A DNA stretch of 25,507 nt, from UHGV virus genome UHGV-0069400; one strand, 5' to 3'. Numbering within the stretch: position 1 is the stretch's first letter; each line of letters starts with the position of its first letter. The position numbers and the translations under genes were made by a program. Shown in pieces: positions 4,804-24,295 of this stretch. Below the pieces are notes generated by a model, which saw only the letters and a program-made list of their open reading frames with translations, was not told the DNA's origin and did not search any database. The DNA comes from a virus.

Positions 4804-4996
4804 GGTGAATGCACAGGCTGATGTGCCGCAACTACAGTAGTGCGCGCTTTGCGGGGCTTGCTACAACCCTGTGTCGGAGTTCAGCACCGACCATCACAGT
4901 TTGATTCTCTGGCATGAGCATAACGCTGAAATAAGTCCAGTCTGGTGCGGCCCGATCACCCGCCGTTAGCTCCACGAAACGGAGCACGTAACAGGT

Positions 4997-5056
4997 AAGA
5001 GCATTCTCCTGTAACGGGTTCATATCCCAATCTACAGGTCCACCAAGAATGCTCTT
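4997..5056 (+). repeat. Structured repeat unit 2: second copy of the conserved core with different but still complementary stems
   Basis: Arms AAGAGCATTCT (4997-5007) and AGAATGCTCTT (5046-5056). Inner stem CCTGTA/TACAGG. Core GTAACGGGTTCATATCCCAATCTAC (5011-5035), 24 of 25 identical to unit 1. GGTGAATGC at 5065-5073. Confidence 0.6.
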
Positions 5057-5214
5057 TCCGTTGCGGTGAATGCGGCTAAGCGCACGCGGGGAAATGGTTA
5101 TATCTGTCCATTATTTCTCCTTGTTTCCACGTCCACGGTGGATAACCAGCCAAAGGACACCGGGAGGCACCCGGCACCGCAACCTTATTTCCCAACCAGT
5201 AATGAGGTTAATAA

Positions 5215-5640
5215 ATGCTCGGCATTCTCAAAAAGAAATTCCGCAAAGCGGCTGGCGGAGTCAAGAAGATGGAAAACCGTGATGCGGTGGAAGCGACTGT
5301 CTGGGGCGCATATTCCATTGCATACTCTGACGGCACCTGCGATGCGAAAGAAATTGCAGTATTGGAAAAAACCATTGCAGCACTTCCTGCCTTTGCGCCG
5401 TTCTCCGGTGAAATTGCCCAGATGAGCGCCAATATTCGCGCTCAATATGAAGCCTCGCCGCGCCGAGCGAATGCCCAGGCTTTACGTGAACTGGCTGACG
5501 TGTCTGGAACTAATGATGCGGTAGATGTTCTGTGCCTATGCATTGATATTGCTGACCAGGATGGCATTGGGGCAGAAGAGCAGGAGCAATTGAAGAAAAT
5601 TGCCCAGGCTCTTCAATTGCCACTGGAACAGTATATCTGA
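5215..5640 (+). CDS. tciA: TerB-like protein (tellurite-resistance TerB family; TciA-like)
   Basis: 141 codons. GAGG 7 nt upstream of the ATG. C-terminal VLCLCIDIADQDGIGAEEQEQLKKIAQALQL matches the TerB-type pattern. Position next to tRNAs and the helicase matches my recollection of the P1 tci cluster. Confidence 0.6.
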   Translation: MLGILKKKFRKAAGGVKKMENRDAVEATVWGAYSIAYSDGTCDAKEIAVLEKTIAALPAFAPFSGEIAQMSANIRAQYEASPRRANAQALRELADVSGTNDAVDVLCLCIDIADQDGIGAEEQEQLKKIAQALQLPLEQYI

Positions 5641-5804
5641 TGGTTATAAAAGCACGTCTAATTCTGGCTTTGGTTTTTCTCGTGCTATCTGTGCTGGTGG
5701 ATTTCACCAGCACAATCCTGTCGGTTTTATCCGACGGGGCGTTGGTAGCAGTAGCTGTAACATTGGTATGGCCGATATTTAAACCAGCCTCGAAGGATCA
5801 GTGA
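5640..5804 (+). CDS. Small hydrophobic membrane protein (54 aa)
   Basis: Not in the supplied ORF track. ATG overlaps the upstream TGA (TGATG). Translation MVIKARLILALVFLVLSVLVDFTSTILSVLSDGALVAVAVTLVWPIFKPASKDQ has two predicted TM segments. Confidence 0.45.
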   Translation: MVIKARLILALVFLVLSVLVDFTSTILSVLSDGALVAVAVTLVWPIFKPASKDQ

Positions 5805-5911
5805 TGAGCTTCTGGGATTTTGCAGATAAGTATCCAATTGTTCTCATTATCATTGTTGCCATAGTTGTAGGTGGTATTGTTAGCGCCATTGAAGCACTTA
5901 GGAAACAGTAA
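5804..5911 (+). CDS. Small hydrophobic membrane protein (35 aa)
   Basis: Not in the supplied ORF track. ATG overlaps the preceding TGA. Translation MSFWDFADKYPIVLIIIVAIVVGGIVSAIEALRKQ has a single TM segment. Ends 3 nt before tRNA-Ile. Confidence 0.4.
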   Translation: MSFWDFADKYPIVLIIIVAIVVGGIVSAIEALRKQ

Positions 5912-5914
5912 TCC

Positions 5915-5990
5915 GGCCCTTTAGCTCAGTGGTTAGAGCTGGCGACTCATAATCGCACGGTCACCGGTTCAAGTCCGGTAGGGGCCACCA
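5915..5990 (+). tRNA. tRNA-Ile2 (anticodon CAT, presumably lysidine-modified; elongator Met not excluded)
   Basis: 76-nt cloverleaf: acceptor GGCCCTT/AGGGGCC, D-arm GCTC-AGTGGTTA-GAGC, anticodon loop CTCATAA, T-arm ACCGG-TTCAAGT-CCGGT, encoded CCA. Body resembles E. coli ileX as I recall it; the G1-C72 pair argues against initiator tRNA. Confidence 0.85.
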
Positions 5991-6227
5991 TATTTGGTTG
6001 TAACACGGCGTCTGGCACATGCGTCGTTAGCGGTCTGGTGACGTTAAAGGGGTTACCTTTTCCCCTAGCTCAGGCAACAAACCAGGTAGCCGGAATGTGC
6101 AAGCCCCGTTCATAGCGTCGGACTGCGGATTCACCATCTTGGCGATTCGGTGTGACAGCCGGGAAGAGTCCGGCGAATTAATCCTGATTTTCTGGTGATG
6201 ACTCATATCGTTAGGAGTGATTTGAGT

Positions 6228-6272
6228 ATGCCGATTATATCTGACATTCAGCACGCCTGGGTGGAGTGCTAA
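6228..6272 (+). CDS. Possible 14-codon upstream leader ORF translationally coupled to the helicase gene
   Basis: AGGAG 11 nt upstream of ATG 6228. Encodes MPIISDIQHAWVEC. Its TAA (6270-6272) overlaps the helicase ATG at 6272 (TAATG). Confidence 0.3.
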   Translation: MPIISDIQHAWVEC

Positions 6273-7636
6273 TGTCTGCATCCCCTCTTGAATCCATGCC
6301 AAATTCCCTTAGTGCAGAACAAGCTGTACTTGGTGGCTTAATGCTTGATAACTGCCGCTGGGATGAAGTGGCAGATCGTATAGTTGCTGATGATTTTTAT
6401 ACCAATGCTCATCGTGAAATTTTCAGTGAGATGGAGAGGTTATTAAGTCATGGCAAACCGATTGATTTGATAACACTTGCTGAAGCACTTGAACAGAACG
6501 GTAAATTAGAACGCGCCGGTGGTTTTGCGTACCTTGCGGAGATGTCAAAGAACACGCCCAGCGCGGCAAATATTTGTGCTTATGCGGATATCGTTCGTGA
6601 ACGCGCGGTTGTTCGTGAAATGATTTCCGTCGCAAATGAAATAGCTGAAGCTGGATATGCGCAGGATGGCCGGGGCAGCAATGAAGTGCTGGATATGGCT
6701 GAACGCCGCGTTTTTGAAATAGCTGAAAAACGACAAAAGAGCGGTAGTGGTCCAAAAGATATCGCCAGCATTCTCGATGCAACGGTATCTCGCATAGAAG
6801 AGTTGTTTCAGCGACCGCATGATGGTGTAACGGGACTTGATACCGGATTTACCGATCTCAATAAGAAGACGGCAGGGCTTCAGTCGTCCGATCTCATCAT
6901 TGTCGCCGCCCGCCCATCTATGGGGAAGACCACGTTTGCGATGAATCTCGTCGAAAATGCCGCAGTTCGTAACGATAAGCCCGTATTGGTTTTTAGCCTT
7001 GAGATGCCGAGCCACCAGCTGATGATGCGCTCACTGGCTTCTCTTGCACGCGTTGATCAGACTCGTATTCGAACAGGGCAACTTAACGACGAGGATTGGG
7101 CGCGGGTTTCTGGCGCAATGGGTATTCTGTTGGACAAGCAGAATATTTTTATTGATGACTCAAGCGCCCTGACGCCGACAGAGCTACGTTCCCGCGCTCG
7201 TCGTGTTTATAAAGAAAATGGTGGTTTGAGCATGATTATGATCGACTACTTGCAACTTATGCGCGTCCCGGAGCTGCAAGATAACCGAACGCTGGAAATT
7301 GCCGAGATTTCTCGCTCTCTAAAGGCGTTGGCGAAGGAATTACAAGTACCGGTGGTGGCATTGTCACAACTTAATCGATCGCTTGAACAGCGTGCGGACA
7401 AACGACCGGTAAATTCAGATTTACGTGAATCAGGAGCAATTGAGCAGGACGCAGACCTGATCATGTTTCTGTATCGCGACGAAGTTTATCACCCGGATAG
7501 CGAAATGAAGGGCATTGCCGAGGTAATTATCGGAAAGCAACGAAATGGCCCAATTGGCACGGTGAGATTGGCTTTTAACGGCCAATACTCACGGTTTGAT
7601 AACTATGCTGGTGCTGACTGGCAAGAGGATTATTAA
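6272..7636 (+). CDS. ban: Replicative DNA helicase, DnaB family (P1 Ban-like)
   Basis: About 454 codons. DnaB-like N-terminal domain and RecA-like C-terminal domain with Walker A ARPSMGKTTFA and Walker B LIMIDYLQLM. GGAG 6 nt upstream of ATG 6272; the ORF track begins at an in-frame GTG at 6266. Confidence 0.85.
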   Translation: MSASPLESMPNSLSAEQAVLGGLMLDNCRWDEVADRIVADDFYTNAHREIFSEMERLLSHGKPIDLITLAEALEQNGKLERAGGFAYLAEMSKNTPSAANICAYADIVRERAVVREMISVANEIAEAGYAQDGRGSNEVLDMAERRVFEIAEKRQKSGSGPKDIASILDATVSRIEELFQRPHDGVTGLDTGFTDLNKKTAGLQSSDLIIVAARPSMGKTTFAMNLVENAAVRNDKPVLVFSLEMPSHQLMMRSLASLARVDQTRIRTGQLNDEDWARVSGAMGILLDKQNIFIDDSSALTPTELRSRARRVYKENGGLSMIMIDYLQLMRVPELQDNRTLEIAEISRSLKALAKELQVPVVALSQLNRSLEQRADKRPVNSDLRESGAIEQDADLIMFLYRDEVYHPDSEMKGIAEVIIGKQRNGPIGTVRLAFNGQYSRFDNYAGADWQEDY

Positions 7637-19464: not shown

Positions 19465-20193
19465 ATGAAAGGCGAAGTGAAAGAGCGCGGCATGATTTTC
19501 AACGATGAGATGGTCCGGGCCATCCTCGAAGGAAGGAAAACGCAGACGCGGCGGATAATGAAAAATCAGCCTGCGGAAGTTGGTCCAGAAGCACCAGTGA
19601 TGGTTAGAAAAATTGGTGCAGGTTTTCAGTGGTACGGGGCTGATGGTGTAAGCAGTGTTTTCAATTGCCCATTTGGTATCGTCGGCGATCGAATTTGGGT
19701 TCGTGAAACATGGGCGATATTAGGCAATGAGGATGGTTGCAGTGTGGACTGGAACGACAACCTTTGTCGTGGCGATGAGAAGAACGCAGCAAGGATTTAT
19801 CGGGCCAGTTGCGAGCAAAAACCTGGTGATTACGGCTTATGGTCGATACCCGATGATGCCGACTGGAAACCTCACACTGTGAATGAAAAGTTTGATGGTG
19901 GGTGGCGTCCATCAATTCACATGCCGCGATGGGCATCACGCATTCTGTTGGAAATTACCAACGTGCGCGTTGAACGGTTGAACGATATCAGCGAATGCGA
20001 TGCAAGGGCTGAGGGCGTTCCGCCTGCTGGAAGTTTGCTTCCTGATCACCCGGGAACATTCCTTACTCCCAAGGGGGATTTCGCAATGGCCAAGGTTGCG
20101 TTCCAGCGCCTGTGGGAATCCATCTATGGTGAAGAAAGCTGGAACGCTAATCCCTGGGTGTGGGTAATCGAGTTTAAGCGCATTCAGGAATAA
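19465..20193 (+). CDS. ASCH-domain-like protein
   Basis: 242 codons. GGGGG upstream. N-terminus MIFNDEMVRAILEGRKTQTRR fits the ASCH GxKxxxxR pattern as I remember it. Confidence 0.45.
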   Translation: MKGEVKERGMIFNDEMVRAILEGRKTQTRRIMKNQPAEVGPEAPVMVRKIGAGFQWYGADGVSSVFNCPFGIVGDRIWVRETWAILGNEDGCSVDWNDNLCRGDEKNAARIYRASCEQKPGDYGLWSIPDDADWKPHTVNEKFDGGWRPSIHMPRWASRILLEITNVRVERLNDISECDARAEGVPPAGSLLPDHPGTFLTPKGDFAMAKVAFQRLWESIYGEESWNANPWVWVIEFKRIQE

Positions 20194-20196
20194 ACC

Positions 20197-21075
20197 GTGA
20201 GTATGCATCAAGTCGTCAGCTTTTCAGGTGGACGAACATCGGCTTATCTCGTTCATCTGATGGAAGCACAGCGAAAAGCTGGCGCTAGCGTCCATTTCAT
20301 TTTTATGGATACCGGCTGTGAACATCCTCTGACGTATCGCTTTATTCGTGAGGTTGTGAAGTTCTGGAACGTACCGCTAACGGTGTTGCAGGTCGATATA
20401 AATCCAGAACTTGGGCAGCCAAATGGTTATACGGAATGGGAACCAAAGGATATTCAGACGCGAATGCCGGTGCTTAAACCGTTTATGGACATGGTTAAAA
20501 AGTACGGTACGCCATACATCGGCGGCGCGTTCTGTACCGACAGGCTAAAACTCACCCCTTTCACGAAATATTGCGATGACCATTTTGGGCGAGGGAATTA
20601 CATCACATGGCTCGGTATTCGTGCGGACGAACCCCGTAGGCTGAAACCGAAACCGGGCGTCCGGTATCTTGCCGAACTGTCAGATTTTGATAAGTCGGAT
20701 GTTATCCGGTGGTGGCGAAAACAACCTTTTGATTTGCAAATCCCGGAGCACCTCGGGAACTGTGTTTTTTGCATCAAAAAGTCAACGCAAAAGCTGGGGC
20801 TTGCATGTAAAGACGAACCAGGTCTGATGCGGGTTTTTAATGAACTGGTTACAGGCAAACACGTCAGGGATGGTCATCGCAGAACAGGTAAAGACGTTAT
20901 GTACCGTGGCCACCTGACGCTTGACGGGATTGCCAGAATGTATGCCGACAGTGACTACAGAAATTTGTATCAGGCGATGGTGCTGGCCAAGCGGTTTGAT
21001 ACTGGTTCGTGTTCCGAATCATGTGAAATCTGGGGTGACCAATTGGAGTTGAAATTCGAAGAGGTAGTGGAATGA
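20197..21075 (+). CDS. PAPS-reductase-family protein (PP-loop ATP-pyrophosphatase fold)
   Basis: 292 codons, GTG start (or ATG at 20203). PP-loop SFSGGRTS near the N-terminus. C-terminal Cys cluster CSESCEIWGDQ. Confidence 0.7.
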   Translation: MSMHQVVSFSGGRTSAYLVHLMEAQRKAGASVHFIFMDTGCEHPLTYRFIREVVKFWNVPLTVLQVDINPELGQPNGYTEWEPKDIQTRMPVLKPFMDMVKKYGTPYIGGAFCTDRLKLTPFTKYCDDHFGRGNYITWLGIRADEPRRLKPKPGVRYLAELSDFDKSDVIRWWRKQPFDLQIPEHLGNCVFCIKKSTQKLGLACKDEPGLMRVFNELVTGKHVRDGHRRTGKDVMYRGHLTLDGIARMYADSDYRNLYQAMVLAKRFDTGSCSESCEIWGDQLELKFEEVVE

Positions 21076-21275
21076 CAATCGTAAAAACCCATACCGGCAC
21101 CGTGATCACCAAAGACGGTCCGAAGGTAAAAAAACTGCACCAAACAGAGCGGATGTGGGTCGTTGGCAAAAACGAGTTTTACCACAAAGAAACTGGACGC
21201 CGCCATTTTGCAGAAAATACGCGCCGCCGACTGCTGTTAGACACCATCAAGCCTATCGAGGTGAAGCATGTTTAA
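21072..21275 (+). CDS. Small hypothetical protein (67 aa)
   Basis: ATG overlaps the upstream TGA (ATGA). Basic protein, no motif. Confidence 0.4.
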   Translation: MTIVKTHTGTVITKDGPKVKKLHQTERMWVVGKNEFYHKETGRRHFAENTRRRLLLDTIKPIEVKHV

Positions 21276-21507
21276 ACAGAACGAAAAAGCTATCGCTCAA
21301 ATTGCTGATTATATCCCGCGTGCGTGCCGGGGTATGCAGTTGCAGGAAGCCAAAGCGCGCCTGGAGAAAAAAATTGCGCTCTATATTGATGACGGCTGTG
21401 ATTCCGCCGTTCTTAACGCGGCGTTCGCACCAGCTCTTAACTGTCACACTCGGGAGTCTTTTTTTTCGTGCATCGCAGCGCAACTCCGCCAAGGAGGCAA
21501 CCAGTGA
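21268..21507 (+). CDS. Small hypothetical protein (79 aa)
   Basis: ATG overlaps the end of the upstream ORF by 8 nt. Confidence 0.4.
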   Translation: MFKQNEKAIAQIADYIPRACRGMQLQEAKARLEKKIALYIDDGCDSAVLNAAFAPALNCHTRESFFSCIAAQLRQGGNQ

Positions 21508-22148
21508 GTAACCGTTTTTACATGATGTGCTTGCGTGAAACTGTGGGTAATAACGCCTCATTCCATTGCCATAACGGCAATGGTTACAGTTCTGATATCG
21601 ATCGAGCACATGTTTACACGCAGGAAGAAGCCCAAAAAGCCTGGAATTGTGGTCGAGATATCGATCAGCCTGTTTGCGCTGATAGCGTGGATGCAATGGC
21701 TGTGTGGCACGTTGATTGCCAGTACATCCCCACAGAAAGCCTGATTGAGTCAGATTGCACTGCGTATGTGGCCTACAAAAAAGGTAGCTGGAACGGCAAC
21801 GATGTTTACTGGCTTCAACACGGTGGATTGCCAACAGATGACTTCAGTAAAGCGACCATCTTTAGCGTCGCCAACAAAAACGAACCAGGAATAGTTTGGT
21901 TGCCATTTTCCATTGCTGATGCAGCAAAGCGTCGGACGTTCAATATCAATAACTTTAACCGCAGAACAATGGTTCAGGGCGCAGGTTTGGTCATGCCTGA
22001 CTGGTTGAAAGAGCAGAACAGAAGAAAGAAGTCGCGAAGCGGGAAGGTGCGTTGGAATTGTCCGCATTGCGGAAAAATAACCTGGCAGTACAGCCCATAT
22101 GATTTTGAAGGCTGTAGTGATTACAACTGTGAAGGATGGCGAGAATGA
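21504..22148 (+). CDS. Hypothetical protein with C-terminal zinc-ribbon
   Basis: ORF track starts at 21468; GTG 21504 has AAGGAGG 7 nt upstream and overlaps the previous stop (GTGA). C-terminal WNCPHCGKITWQ...CSDYNCEGW. Confidence 0.45.
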   Translation: MSNRFYMMCLRETVGNNASFHCHNGNGYSSDIDRAHVYTQEEAQKAWNCGRDIDQPVCADSVDAMAVWHVDCQYIPTESLIESDCTAYVAYKKGSWNGNDVYWLQHGGLPTDDFSKATIFSVANKNEPGIVWLPFSIADAAKRRTFNINNFNRRTMVQGAGLVMPDWLKEQNRRKKSRSGKVRWNCPHCGKITWQYSPYDFEGCSDYNCEGWRE

Positions 22149-22891
22149 CAATTGACTATCAGGCACTGCGTGAGGCGGCAGAGCGTGCAATTCCGGCAAT
22201 GGAACACCTGTTAATGTTGCCAGTTGATGATGATTTGTTAACTGAACAGGAACTTAAGGATTACGGTGTGGATATTGATGCGCTCAACGCCTTCAAATTT
22301 CTGACCGGACCAGAAACCGTGCTGGCACTACTGGATGAACGGGAAAGAAACCAGCAATACATCAAACGCCGCGACCAGGAGAACGAGGATATTGCGCTAA
22401 CGGTTGGGAGGCTGCTAATCGAAAACGGCCAGCTTGTTGCCGATACGCTACGCCACTTAGCTGATAACGAAATCGACTCTGATTATTTTGCTATCACCTC
22501 AACGAATGAGAACGGTACTGAAATTGATCATGAGATGGCTATTACCGATTACGCACTGCAAGCTGCCGGAACTGTAGACGAATTGGTTGCAGCGCTGGAA
22601 TCCGCAGAGAAGCGCATAGCAGAACTGGAAGCACGGGAAATAAAACCAGCCAAAGGCGAAGTTCTTGTCGTTGTATCTGGTTTTACTGGTTGCGGAAAAA
22701 GCGCCATTGCCGGGGAAATAGAAATCGCGATGAAGGCTATTGGTGTACCGGTTAAGTGGACTAATGGCGATGCAGAAAAGCGCATGACTGGCGCTGACTG
22801 GCTGACAGCGATTGAGATGTACAAACCAACTGTGCGCATCGCGGAAGTTAATGTGCCACGCGCCGCTGGCATTCGCATCAAAGGAGAGTGA
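22145..22891 (+). CDS. Hypothetical protein, possibly Ea22-like
   Basis: ATG 22145 overlaps the upstream TGA (ATGA); the ORF track starts at 22136. N-terminus MTIDYQALREAAERA resembles lambdoid Ea22-type proteins as I recall them. Confidence 0.4.
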   Translation: MTIDYQALREAAERAIPAMEHLLMLPVDDDLLTEQELKDYGVDIDALNAFKFLTGPETVLALLDERERNQQYIKRRDQENEDIALTVGRLLIENGQLVADTLRHLADNEIDSDYFAITSTNENGTEIDHEMAITDYALQAAGTVDELVAALESAEKRIAELEAREIKPAKGEVLVVVSGFTGCGKSAIAGEIEIAMKAIGVPVKWTNGDAEKRMTGADWLTAIEMYKPTVRIAEVNVPRAAGIRIKGE

Positions 22892-22896
22892 GTGAT

Positions 22897-23094
22897 ATGG
22901 ATAAAAACACCACTGCTTACTGGAATCTGTCACTTGATACCGAATGCCCCAAATGTGGTCACAATTTCGATCTGCTCTGTGATGCTGATTTCTGGGAGTT
23001 TTCTGGAGCAAAACAGGCATGTGAAGAAATAAAAGGTTACGAAACATGCTGCCCAGAATGTAACCATGAATTTAAAACAGATTTTGTGTATTGA
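22897..23094 (+). CDS. Small zinc-ribbon protein (66 aa)
   Basis: GGAG upstream of ATG 22897 (ORF track uses GTG 22888). Two CxxC pairs: CPKCGH and CCPECNH. Confidence 0.45.
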   Translation: MDKNTTAYWNLSLDTECPKCGHNFDLLCDADFWEFSGAKQACEEIKGYETCCPECNHEFKTDFVY

Positions 23095-23104
23095 GGCATA
23101 ACGA

Positions 23105-24295
23105 ATGACCACTTTTACTAAAGAACAATTAATAGAGATAATTAAGCGCAATATAACGGTTATGGATCGTTATCCTGATTTAGTAACTGCACAAATGGAT
23201 CTGGAAGTATACAAAATCGCGCTGGCATCACTGGAAGCAGAACCAGTTGCTTATATTTTCAAACATCCGGCCGGGAAATTATTCTGGGCTTTAACGGATG
23301 AAAGCAATAAAGAGCAACCGGACGTTATTCCTGTTTATGCTGACTCACCTGCGCCGGTTGTGCCGGATGAAATAGACGTAAACGATGTACCAAGGGCGGT
23401 GACATATTTCAAGACACACAGAGATTGTTACGCAGATGGCTGGAACGCCTGCCGCGCCGCCATGCTTCAGTCCGGAAACTTTCGGGAAAATAAGAATTCG
23501 TCAACCAATAATTTTCGGGAAATCGCGGAAACGTCAACCAACTATCCGGTAATTCCTAGTGAGGTGTTGTCCGCAATCCTGAAGGTTGCCAAGATTCGTG
23601 CCGATTTCGATGATTTTGACGGTGACAGGCGAGGTATCGGTGATTGTCTGGATGAGGCTGAGCAAGAGCTTATCGTTACCATTAACAAATATGCCAGTCA
23701 GTTGGCAGCAGAACCGATAGCGACTAATGACGTTCGAGAGCAAACAGCCGTTCCGCCAGTTCCTGTAATACAGGCTGATGTCGCGCAGGCAATTGAAAAA
23801 CTCAAACGGAAATTAGTGGAATGCAATCGCTATAACTACTGCGCAGATGCAGTTAAGGGCGTTGAGTATGCCTGCCACGCTGCCATGCTTCAGGGTAGCC
23901 AACCTGTAAGCCAAACTTACAAGTTTCCAGTTAATACACCTTGCCAGGATGCGCCAGCCCATATCTGGCTGCAAACAGCTGGAGTATGGCCAGAAGATGG
24001 CGAGTTAAGCGAATTAACGTGGTGCAGCCACAATCAGCACCATGATGACACGCTATATGTTCGAGCTGACTTGGTAAATGGCAATTCTCAGGTAACTCCG
24101 GATGGTTGGATAAGCTGTAGTGAGCGAATGCCCGCTCAAGATGATTGGATTTTAATTTATTCAAAGCACGGTGAGTATATGGCAGGACAGGTGCAAGGGG
24201 AATACGTGGAGTTGAGCGACGGCACTTTATCCTGGTTAGGGAACGCCTTGTTCTGGATGCTGCTACCAGAACCTCCCCAGGAGGCAGGTCAATGA
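23105..24295 (+). CDS. Hypothetical protein with internal repeats and DUF551-like C-terminus
   Basis: 396 codons. GAGG upstream. Repeated ACRAAMLQSG / ACHAAMLQGS segments. C-terminal GWISCSERMPAQDDWILIY...WMLLPEPP resembles the DUF551 pattern as I recall it. Confidence 0.45.
   Translation: MTTFTKEQLIEIIKRNITVMDRYPDLVTAQMDLEVYKIALASLEAEPVAYIFKHPAGKLFWALTDESNKEQPDVIPVYADSPAPVVPDEIDVNDVPRAVTYFKTHRDCYADGWNACRAAMLQSGNFRENKNSSTNNFREIAETSTNYPVIPSEVLSAILKVAKIRADFDDFDGDRRGIGDCLDEAEQELIVTINKYASQLAAEPIATNDVREQTAVPPVPVIQADVAQAIEKLKRKLVECNRYNYCADAVKGVEYACHAAMLQGSQPVSQTYKFPVNTPCQDAPAHIWLQTAGVWPEDGELSELTWCSHNQHHDDTLYVRADLVNGNSQVTPDGWISCSERMPAQDDWILIYSKHGEYMAGQVQGEYVELSDGTLSWLGNALFWMLLPEPPQEAGQ

Follow-up and report, generated by a model that had tools for sequence, protein, structure and literature searches.

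The stretch of virus genome UHGV-0069400 analysed here, 25,507 nucleotides (nt) long and called the window throughout, comes from a P1-like phage-plasmid. This report concerns seven consecutive genes within it, at positions 19,465 to 23,094 (the region), of which the first is the pmgT gene of phage P1 and the second is a homolog of ninC of phage λ. We propose that the region is a mosaic array in the pmgT operon of a P1-like element and that NinC is its probable counter-defence enzyme; taken as a whole, we consider this explanation reasonably probable. In a co-occurrence survey of several hundred related loci, in which each gene was used as an anchor and its neighbours were scored, each module of the array is shown to come, go, and change place independently of the others, which makes the array a mosaic and not a single multi-protein machine. 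A preliminary description of the same DNA had seen in these genes one co-functional cassette for nucleic-acid modification. That view is not supported, since pmgT is a P1 backbone gene, a recombination breakpoint lies inside pmgT, and the supposed partners assort independently.

The genes of the region, named here g3 to g7 from the third onward, and their downstream neighbour in the array are as follows.

19465..20193, plus strand: pmgT, a P1 backbone gene; 242-residue ASCH-fold protein with a conserved Cys/His-rich insertion at about residues 81–158
20203..21075, plus strand: ninC homolog; 290-residue PP-loop enzyme of the phosphoadenosine phosphosulfate (PAPS) reductase superfamily, related to SspD
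21072..21275, plus strand: g3; basic protein of 67 residues, phrog_1226, always accompanying g4
21268..21507, plus strand: g4; 79 residues, phrog_1344, with an 8-nt overlap with g3
21504..22148, plus strand: g5; orphan of 214 residues, phrog_2457, an optional insert in the interval between g4 and the Ea22-like gene, with a C-terminal Cys-rich, zinc-ribbon-like segment
22145..22891, plus strand: g6; Ead/Ea22-like protein of 248 residues, PF13935, phrog_250/11761
22897..23094, plus strand: g7; zinc ribbon of 65 residues with two CxxC pairs, phrog_4173
23105..24295, plus strand: DUF551 gene, the downstream neighbour; 396 residues, C-terminal DUF551 (PF04448)

In this arrangement, pmgT is P1 backbone, and ninC, g3–g4, g5, the Ea22-like gene, g7, and the DUF551 gene are distinct modules in a row. 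All of these are also found in the early-left regions of Shiga toxin (Stx) phages and other lambdoid prophages. They have been joined by recombination at or near gene boundaries, with short overlaps keeping each module translated behind its neighbour.

The replicon and the joint inside pmgT

The source stretch is 99.9% identical to the E. coli plasmid pCombat11I9-3 (NZ_CP021729), in which the region is matched at full length. The seven same-strand open reading frames (ORFs) of the region, obtained from an ORF listing and by direct reading, match the RefSeq gene calls on that plasmid. In a mosaic map made with blastn, the P1 reference aligns to window positions 4982–20159 at 98.8%. The order pmgS–pap–pmgT is kept as in P1, with pmgS and pap upstream of the array, and the three tRNA genes of the window stand at the positions expected from P1, the one with the CAT anticodon matching the annotated trnI of P1. 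Within the region itself, Rfam and tRNA scans found zero RNA genes.

The same map places the joint between the P1 and lambdoid parts.

20160..20197, no strand: recombination breakpoint; P1 homology up to 20159, homology to Stx phage PA2 from 20198

The P1-reference homology thus ends 34 nt before the pmgT stop, within the last 11 codons of that gene, and from 20198 there is a 92.6% match to the early-left region of PA2 that spans ninC, g3, and g4. Since the P1 homology stops inside pmgT and the Stx-phage homology then begins, the adjacency of the ASCH and PP-loop genes is the edge of a recombination joint and not the interior of a conserved unit.

The pmgT–pmgU–pmgV operon of P1, under Op88 (OpmgT), is the known system that the window resembles here: the operator and leader are identical, and PmgT, the "ASCH-like" protein of the preliminary description, is 99% identical to that of P1 over residues 1–232. 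Where the P1 reference carries pmgU, pmgV, and upfM–O, the window has instead about 5 kb of lambdoid-type modules. The two PmgT proteins also differ in length, with 242 residues in the window, which is the family norm, versus 309 in the P1 reference. The P1 reference PmgT (14489–15418) departs from that norm past residue 232, and some 200 nt of its gene overlap pmgU. The C-terminal end of the reference protein seems to have arisen through a rearrangement at the same breakpoint and not to be the ancestral one.

At least 80% of the region is found in one place in 7 of 5,426 complete E. coli genomes, and fragments of it are found in 3,196 genomes. The accessory array is known and hypervariable, and the region is one of its rare permutations, with a sequence that is already in RefSeq. 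As a "cassette" it has little weight, being one permutation of a well-populated and constantly reshuffled P1-like accessory region.

Gene junctions

All seven genes had been described as joined by overlaps. Their number and tight packing are borne out, but unambiguous overlaps are present at four of the six junctions. Between pmgT and ninC there is a gap and no overlap, of 3 nt if ninC begins at the GTG at 20197 and of 9 nt with the RefSeq ATG start at 20203. An ATGA with a 4-nt overlap joins ninC to g3 and, again, g5 to g6; g3 and g4 overlap by 8 nt in ATGTTTAA; and g4 and g5 overlap by 4 nt in GTGA, with AAGGAGG 7 nt upstream. At the junction of g6 and g7, a GTGA exists only if g7 starts with the GTG at 22888, and the RefSeq ATG at 22897 leaves a 5-nt gap. 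In λ, overlaps occur at every junction from ninB through Q. Overlaps are the norm in lambdoid accessory arrays of this kind, and therefore they are not a special signal. A scan predicted no convincing terminator inside the region.

Assortment of the modules

The NinC-anchored part of the survey consists of IMG/VR loci that are 93–100% identical, 61 of them with enough downstream DNA and 69 with enough upstream DNA. Downstream of NinC, g3 and g4 are present together in 31 of the 61 loci and neither is present in the other 30; the Ea22-like gene occurs in 22, g5 in 5, and g7 in 0. Upstream, 52 of the 69 loci have DUF2303 and 11 have PmgT. When g4 is the anchor, g3 is found at every locus (80/80), with an intact NinC at 32 and none intact at 48. 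When PmgT is the anchor, NinC lies downstream in 8 of 75. A co-occurrence analysis of this kind had been suggested in the preliminary description, and it reveals no fixed cassette: g3–g4 is the only fixed pair, and the remaining genes are independent modules. The DUF551 gene is likewise a frequent member of the same shuffled array at related loci.

A second, more distant set comprises about 45 NinC loci from other species, at 37–74% identity, each scored over a 5-kb neighbourhood. None of these has g3, g4, g5, an Ea22-like gene, or g7 within 5 kb of NinC. In Pantoea, Erwinia, and Chimaeribacter, NinC comes directly after NinG in the nin region, and in lambdoid phages it follows DUF2303 or gp25, or occupies the nin region, without PmgT. 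Two Xenorhabdus loci have a PmgT homolog 0.8–1.4 kb downstream of NinC. A conserved PmgT–NinC pairing, which we had considered as a candidate, is rejected in view of the co-occurrence counts, both those with PmgT as anchor (8/75) and those of the distant loci.

In many P1-like plasmids, ninC has suffered a clean deletion of about 0.8 kb (window 20267–21054), with pmgT and g3–g4 retained. The deletion leaves the first ~64 nt (~21 codons) and the last ~21 nt (~7 codons) of the gene, the joint shows microhomology of a few bases, and by blast-coordinate arithmetic the deletion appears to be in frame. These sister plasmids would be natural ninC-null controls. In a second group of plasmids, P1-related and about 90 kb in size, there is a contiguous pmgT–ninC block at 87–92% identity. 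Because the block is found in this second group as well, the pairing is a feature of the insertion site of that backbone.

It could be argued that PmgT, the PP-loop enzyme, and the small and zinc-ribbon proteins nevertheless make up one co-expressed complex of fixed ratio that installs a new modification in phage DNA or host tRNA. The recurrence of the pmgT–ninC block in the second plasmid group and the two Xenorhabdus loci are in its favour, as are the tight packing with four overlapping junctions and the predicted ASCH fold of PmgT, given that ASCH domains bind modified nucleic acids or, as in YqfB, act on N4-acetylcytidine (ac4C). Such a complex is not easily reconciled with partners that assort independently, with a pmgT that is a backbone gene and exists in the P1 reference without ninC, with plasmids that have lost ninC and still hold pmgT and g3–g4, with lambdoid NinC proteins that do without PmgT, or with the absence of g7 from all 61 NinC loci. 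We regard the single complex as quite improbable, and we return to the mosaic array.

How the modules might be exchanged is suggested by short similar strings that recur at different module joints, for example at window 21493–21510 and 22140–22160. The string GGCAACCAGTGAGT is shared by the ends of g4 and of a pmgT variant, and GAATGACAAT(C/T)G is present at the ends of both ninC and g5. The recurrence of shared strings at joints fits exchange at gene boundaries, and the strings may be microhomologies that enable modules to be exchanged with their start/stop overlaps preserved.

Two side observations were made in the course of the survey. The chromosome of Xenorhabdus sp. TCT-1 holds three NinC homologs at distant positions with identical match statistics, which suggests three related prophages, each with a NinC. 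Separately, the exact λ order ren–ninB–ninC–ninD…ninH was encountered in unrelated taxa (Pseudomonas, Oceanobacillus, Kitasatospora, Bradyrhizobium, a Segatella metagenome-assembled genome, Shewanella, and others). These matches score identically, and several are on contigs of about 48.4–48.5 kb; they look like λ DNA contaminating public assemblies and not like real prophages.

NinC and its relatives

NinC of the window is 80% identical to λ NinC over 285 of 290 residues, the two proteins are of equal length, and the family-invariant residues are present. The λ gene, too, has 4-nt overlaps with its neighbours. It is flanked by ninB and ninD in the late-early nin region, whereas the window and Stx copies belong to an array of the early-left (exo–xis side) type, and the window copy, unlike that of λ, is inserted behind the pmgT of a P1-like plasmid. 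The NinC family has more than 4,300 homolog clusters. Its invariant elements are the PP-loop SxSGGRxS (here SFSGGRTS), DTG, G-x-R-x-D-E-x-x-R, C111, C124, and C187xxC190, and there are six conserved cysteines. The tail GSCSESCE(I/V/A) is nearly invariant and is disordered or flexible in the predicted structure. The model is confident, and its best fold matches are APS (adenosine phosphosulfate) reductase with a [4Fe-4S] cluster and iron–sulfur (Fe-S) thiolases.

The gene identities given in the preliminary description stand: PmgT has a predicted ASCH-type fold, NinC matches the PAPS-reductase family PF01507 with 37.7 bits (cut-off 22.5), and g6 is Ea22-like (PF13935, 87.1 bits, cut-off 27). 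The match of NinC to PF01507 aligns residues 4–70 only. For its C-terminal half, nothing meaningful was found in Pfam, even at E<=10, and among PDB sequences it matches CysH and APR over the N-terminal 60 residues only. It is not a member of DndC, with 17.5 bits on TIGR03183 (cut-off 290.4) and 17 bits on the PADLOC DndC model.

Among characterised families, the closest relationship that emerges is with SspD, the PP-loop ATP pyrophosphatase and sulfur-transfer component of the SspABCD system of single-strand DNA phosphorothioation. The PADLOC model of SspD is matched by 29 of 29 NinC family members. An hhalign comparison of the NinC family with SspD gives a probability of 99.6%, with an E of 4e-24 over 228 columns, in which the PP-loop, DTG, a conserved Cys (FCTDR versus RWCT), GIRADE, and CxxC are aligned. 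The two proteins are of similar size, and both have a C-terminal tail with two cysteines; BrxP and DndC are more distant relatives of NinC. Identity between NinC and SspD is 25%, and NinC is encoded by phages, SspD by defence islands. A degenerate-pattern genome scan recruited genuine SspD proteins, which score 297–360 bits on the SspD model. PADLOC found no restriction partner for NinC, whose neighbours are P1 and lambdoid accessory genes.

A possible counter-defence role

We propose that NinC would act alone against phosphorothioate-dependent restriction of the Dnd and Ssp families, and that it would do so by ATP-dependent activation together with cysteine or Fe-S chemistry, directed at phage DNA or at the host modification machinery. 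This role has, in our estimate, slightly less than an even chance of being correct.

The lead comes from a homolog in Vibrio phages. In some proteins of the family, a Dam DNA methyltransferase is fused to the NinC domain, and one of these, p0018 of Vibrio phage 44E38.1 (a PAPS-reductase–Dam fusion, identical in 41E34.2), is 55% identical to NinC over residues 1–280 of the latter (E 3e-109). It has the CxxC and GSCSESCE motifs, and its gene is among the early accessory genes, with surroundings that resemble the nin region and include NinG. According to Piel et al. (preprint 10.1101/2021.05.05.442762), a sister phage into which p0018 and the adjacent p0019 had been moved could infect a Dnd+ host without the retron, and the authors credit the PAPS domain with at least part of the effect. 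The result has since been cited as Dnd evasion mediated by a phage PAPS reductase (PMC13551039). The preliminary description had called the substrate of the PP-loop protein an open question; a new lead on it is that NinC is SspD-like and has a close homolog tied to anti-Dnd activity. The anti-Dnd protein JSS1_004, which was considered as a possible relative, is a T7 gp0.7-like kinase and is unrelated to the region.

Several points weigh against a counter-defence role. The Vibrio protein has a C-terminal Dam domain (PF05869), whereas NinC of the window ends at residue 290 and the region has no Dam; moreover, the Vibrio result is a swap of two genes, p0018 with p0019, and not of a NinC-type domain alone. 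Neither p0019 nor the other Vibrio neighbours have homologs in the window. On the SspD model, NinC scores 48.8 bits, and the match covers residues 3–146, which is the N-terminal half. Its PP-loop reads SGGRTS versus SGGKDS in SspD, with Thr replacing the usual Asp, and its tail reads CSESCE versus CxxCHL. No neighbour of NinC had a PADLOC hit, no SspA, SspB, or SspC partner was found among the proteins scanned, and the rest of the P1-backbone window gives no hint of one. On these comparisons, the NinC family is a phage-borne sister to the PP-loop enzymes of DNA phosphorothioation; the low score, the SGGRTS PP-loop, the different tail, and the absence of Ssp partners set it apart from SspD proper. 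The literature search returned no study on λ NinC or on the function of stand-alone NinC, and a review of the phosphorothioation machinery (PMC10853773) makes no mention of NinC or of phage copies. Finally, λ ninC is dispensable in the laboratory host, as seen by CRISPR interference (CRISPRi) with Q supplied in trans (efficiencies of plating of 1.0 and 1.5). No Dnd or Ssp system is known from the laboratory K-12 host, and so the proposed role would be conditional.

It is tempting to go one step further and to suppose that NinC is a self-sufficient viral relative of SspD that draws on housekeeping sulfur donors only (such as IscS) and furnishes phage DNA with phosphorothioate or with a different ATP-activated modification of backbone or bases. 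We think this version unlikely. If it were true, λ, Stx phages, and P1-like plasmids would pass as 'self' to Dnd- and Ssp-type defences, the long-uncharacterised ninC of λ would have a function, and NinC would be the first single-protein phosphorothioate writer.

Among other explanations of NinC, the one that fares best dispenses with counter-defence: NinC would be a leftover or conditionally neutral passenger, or a helper of recombination or replication like NinB and NinG. The dispensability of λ ninC and its frequent deletion in P1-like plasmids agree with this, as does its position directly beside NinG or NinB in several species. Against the phage PA2 copy, however, NinC is under strong purifying selection, with a ratio of nonsynonymous to synonymous differences (pN/pS) of 0.09; g3 and g4 are under purifying selection too, at 0.14 and 0.28. 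A passenger or helper also leaves aside the catalytic residues that are invariant across the more than 4,300 clusters and the anti-Dnd genetics of the 55%-identical homolog, and counter-defence genes are themselves typically gained and lost often. We judge it an unlikely explanation on balance.

Less credible is that NinC modifies RNA, for example as a tRNA thiolase or as a lysidine- or agmatidine-type enzyme, and thereby adjusts the tRNAs of the host or of P1, PmgT being its RNA-binding partner. It is true that P1-like elements have tRNAs of their own and that some ASCH proteins act on RNA. The fold scores, however, reflect the generic PP-loop core, the profile homology to SspD, a DNA enzyme, is near full length, the known fusions are to a DNA methyltransferase, and the genetic evidence concerns a DNA-based defence; in addition, Pfam searches detect no THUMP, PUA, or tRNA-binding domain in NinC. 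We give this idea little credence.

The Pfam PAPS_reduct match and the frequent reading of phage PAPS reductases in virome papers would make ninC an auxiliary metabolic gene whose product, a functional PAPS/APS reductase (CysH), raises sulfate assimilation in the infected host. This is very improbable: in the hidden Markov model (HMM) search, the CysH equivalog PRK02090, with a cut-off of 154 bits, gives NinC 21.4 bits, and so NinC is no member of CysH; it has a near-canonical SGGxxS PP-loop and, family-wide, a GSCSESCE tail in place of ECGLH, the C-terminal catalytic motif of CysH; HMM and profile comparisons place it nearer SspD and BrxP; its domain is fused to Dam DNA methylases; and it is found in phage early and anti-defence regions, never beside sulfur-pathway genes. 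In setting the PP-loop protein outside ordinary sulfate assimilation, the preliminary description was right, and a counter-defence enzyme remains the function that we favour for NinC.

PmgT

The predicted structure of PmgT has the ASCH fold, a PUA-like β-barrel, and its top fold match is E. coli YqfB. In Pfam, it matches no family at E<=0.01 and no ASCH family at E<=10, and in this lack of a Pfam ASCH match it differs from the ASCH proteins with which it may be compared (the E. coli ac4C amidohydrolase YqfB, 3s9x, PH0355, and ZmASCH). It differs from them further in that some 80 inserted residues, rich in Cys and His, highly conserved, and modelled without confidence, split the domain, and in having Thr in place of the Glu of the usual GxKxxExR motif, the consensus of ASCH proteins. 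The segment that AlphaFold failed to model, residues ~81–158 (window ~19705–19940), is the most conserved of the PmgT family. It reads LGNEDGC...DW...AARIYRASCEQ...LWSIPD...WKPHT...PSIHMPRWASR. Cys92, Cys116, and His152 are invariant in the family, and Cys68 and His137 are nearly so. The insertion possibly binds a metal or has a catalytic role inside the ASCH fold. In P1, pmgT is non-essential by CRISPRi.

The small and Ea22-like proteins

Three zinc-ribbon or small proteins had been listed in the preliminary description. This holds: g7 has two CxxC pairs, g5 has a Cys-rich C-terminus, and g3 and g4, which are small, have no zinc-ribbon motif. For g3, g4, and g5, nothing meaningful was found in Pfam (even at E<=10), NCBIfam, or PADLOC. 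The C-terminal segment of g5, of the form CPHC...CxxxxC, gives weak zinc-finger matches only. A homolog search places g5 in a family of 133 clusters, all 'hypothetical' and with no Pfam domain, and PDB sequences yield nothing.

The g6 protein has a C-terminal module of about 70 residues with a Walker-A motif, GFTGCGKS, at codons 179–186 (22679–22702). It scores 16.3 bits on APS_kinase, below the cut-off of 21.1. We considered it as an APS kinase partner of the "PAPS reductase" and rejected this, since the match is sub-threshold and confined to the Walker-A part of the ~70-residue module, and generic P-loop families score alike. A kinase would need more residues than the module has, and the likeness is probably one of P-loops in general.

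Operator, leader, and expected expression

Directly after pap, the operator and leader of pmgT are identical to those of P1, and two features stand out.

19270..19286, plus strand: C1 repressor operator (P1 OpmgT, formerly Op88); the 17-bp ATTGCTCTAATAAATCT, identical to the annotated P1 operator
19369..19455, plus strand: unannotated, strongly hydrophobic ORF of 28 codons (MNTAFKIIMAAIYFWLFSITFGGIVAHG), located in the leader of pmgT; AGGAG precedes it by 8 nt, and its stop is 9 nt before the pmgT start

The operator overlaps the predicted sigma-70 promoters P2pmgT and P1pmgT, whose −35 and −10 elements lie at 19271–19314. By homology to P1, transcription would start at these promoters, just past pap, and on the strength of the P1 annotation the array would be silent in the plasmid prophage and turned on once C1 is inactivated. 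Expression of the array under C1 control is thus inferred from what is annotated in P1, and the promoter scan gave no strong sigma-70 site at the C1-controlled promoter; both count against this part of the explanation.

The 28-codon ORF is conserved in P1, where the sole difference within it is synonymous, and is absent from the annotation of NC_005856. It may encode a leader peptide or a small peptide of the membrane. Upstream of this ORF and downstream of the C1-controlled promoters, at 19319–19341, is a strong GC-rich hairpin of 9 bp, CATGCCGCG/CGCGGCATG. The scan scored it as a minus-strand terminator, yet there is no minus-strand gene upstream; on the plus strand, it would be part of the 5′ leader of the operon. 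As a whole, the pmgT leader folds barely better than its shuffles (z −1.9).

Implications

Virome studies routinely score phage "PAPS reductases" as sulfur metabolism, and the NinC clade, which includes the λ gene, is not CysH. The clade is better read as an SspD-like enzyme, probably one of counter-defence, than as a sulfur-assimilation gene, and the single genetic link that it has so far is with anti-Dnd activity. With this reading, the function of λ NinC becomes directly testable in λ, P1, and Stx phages.

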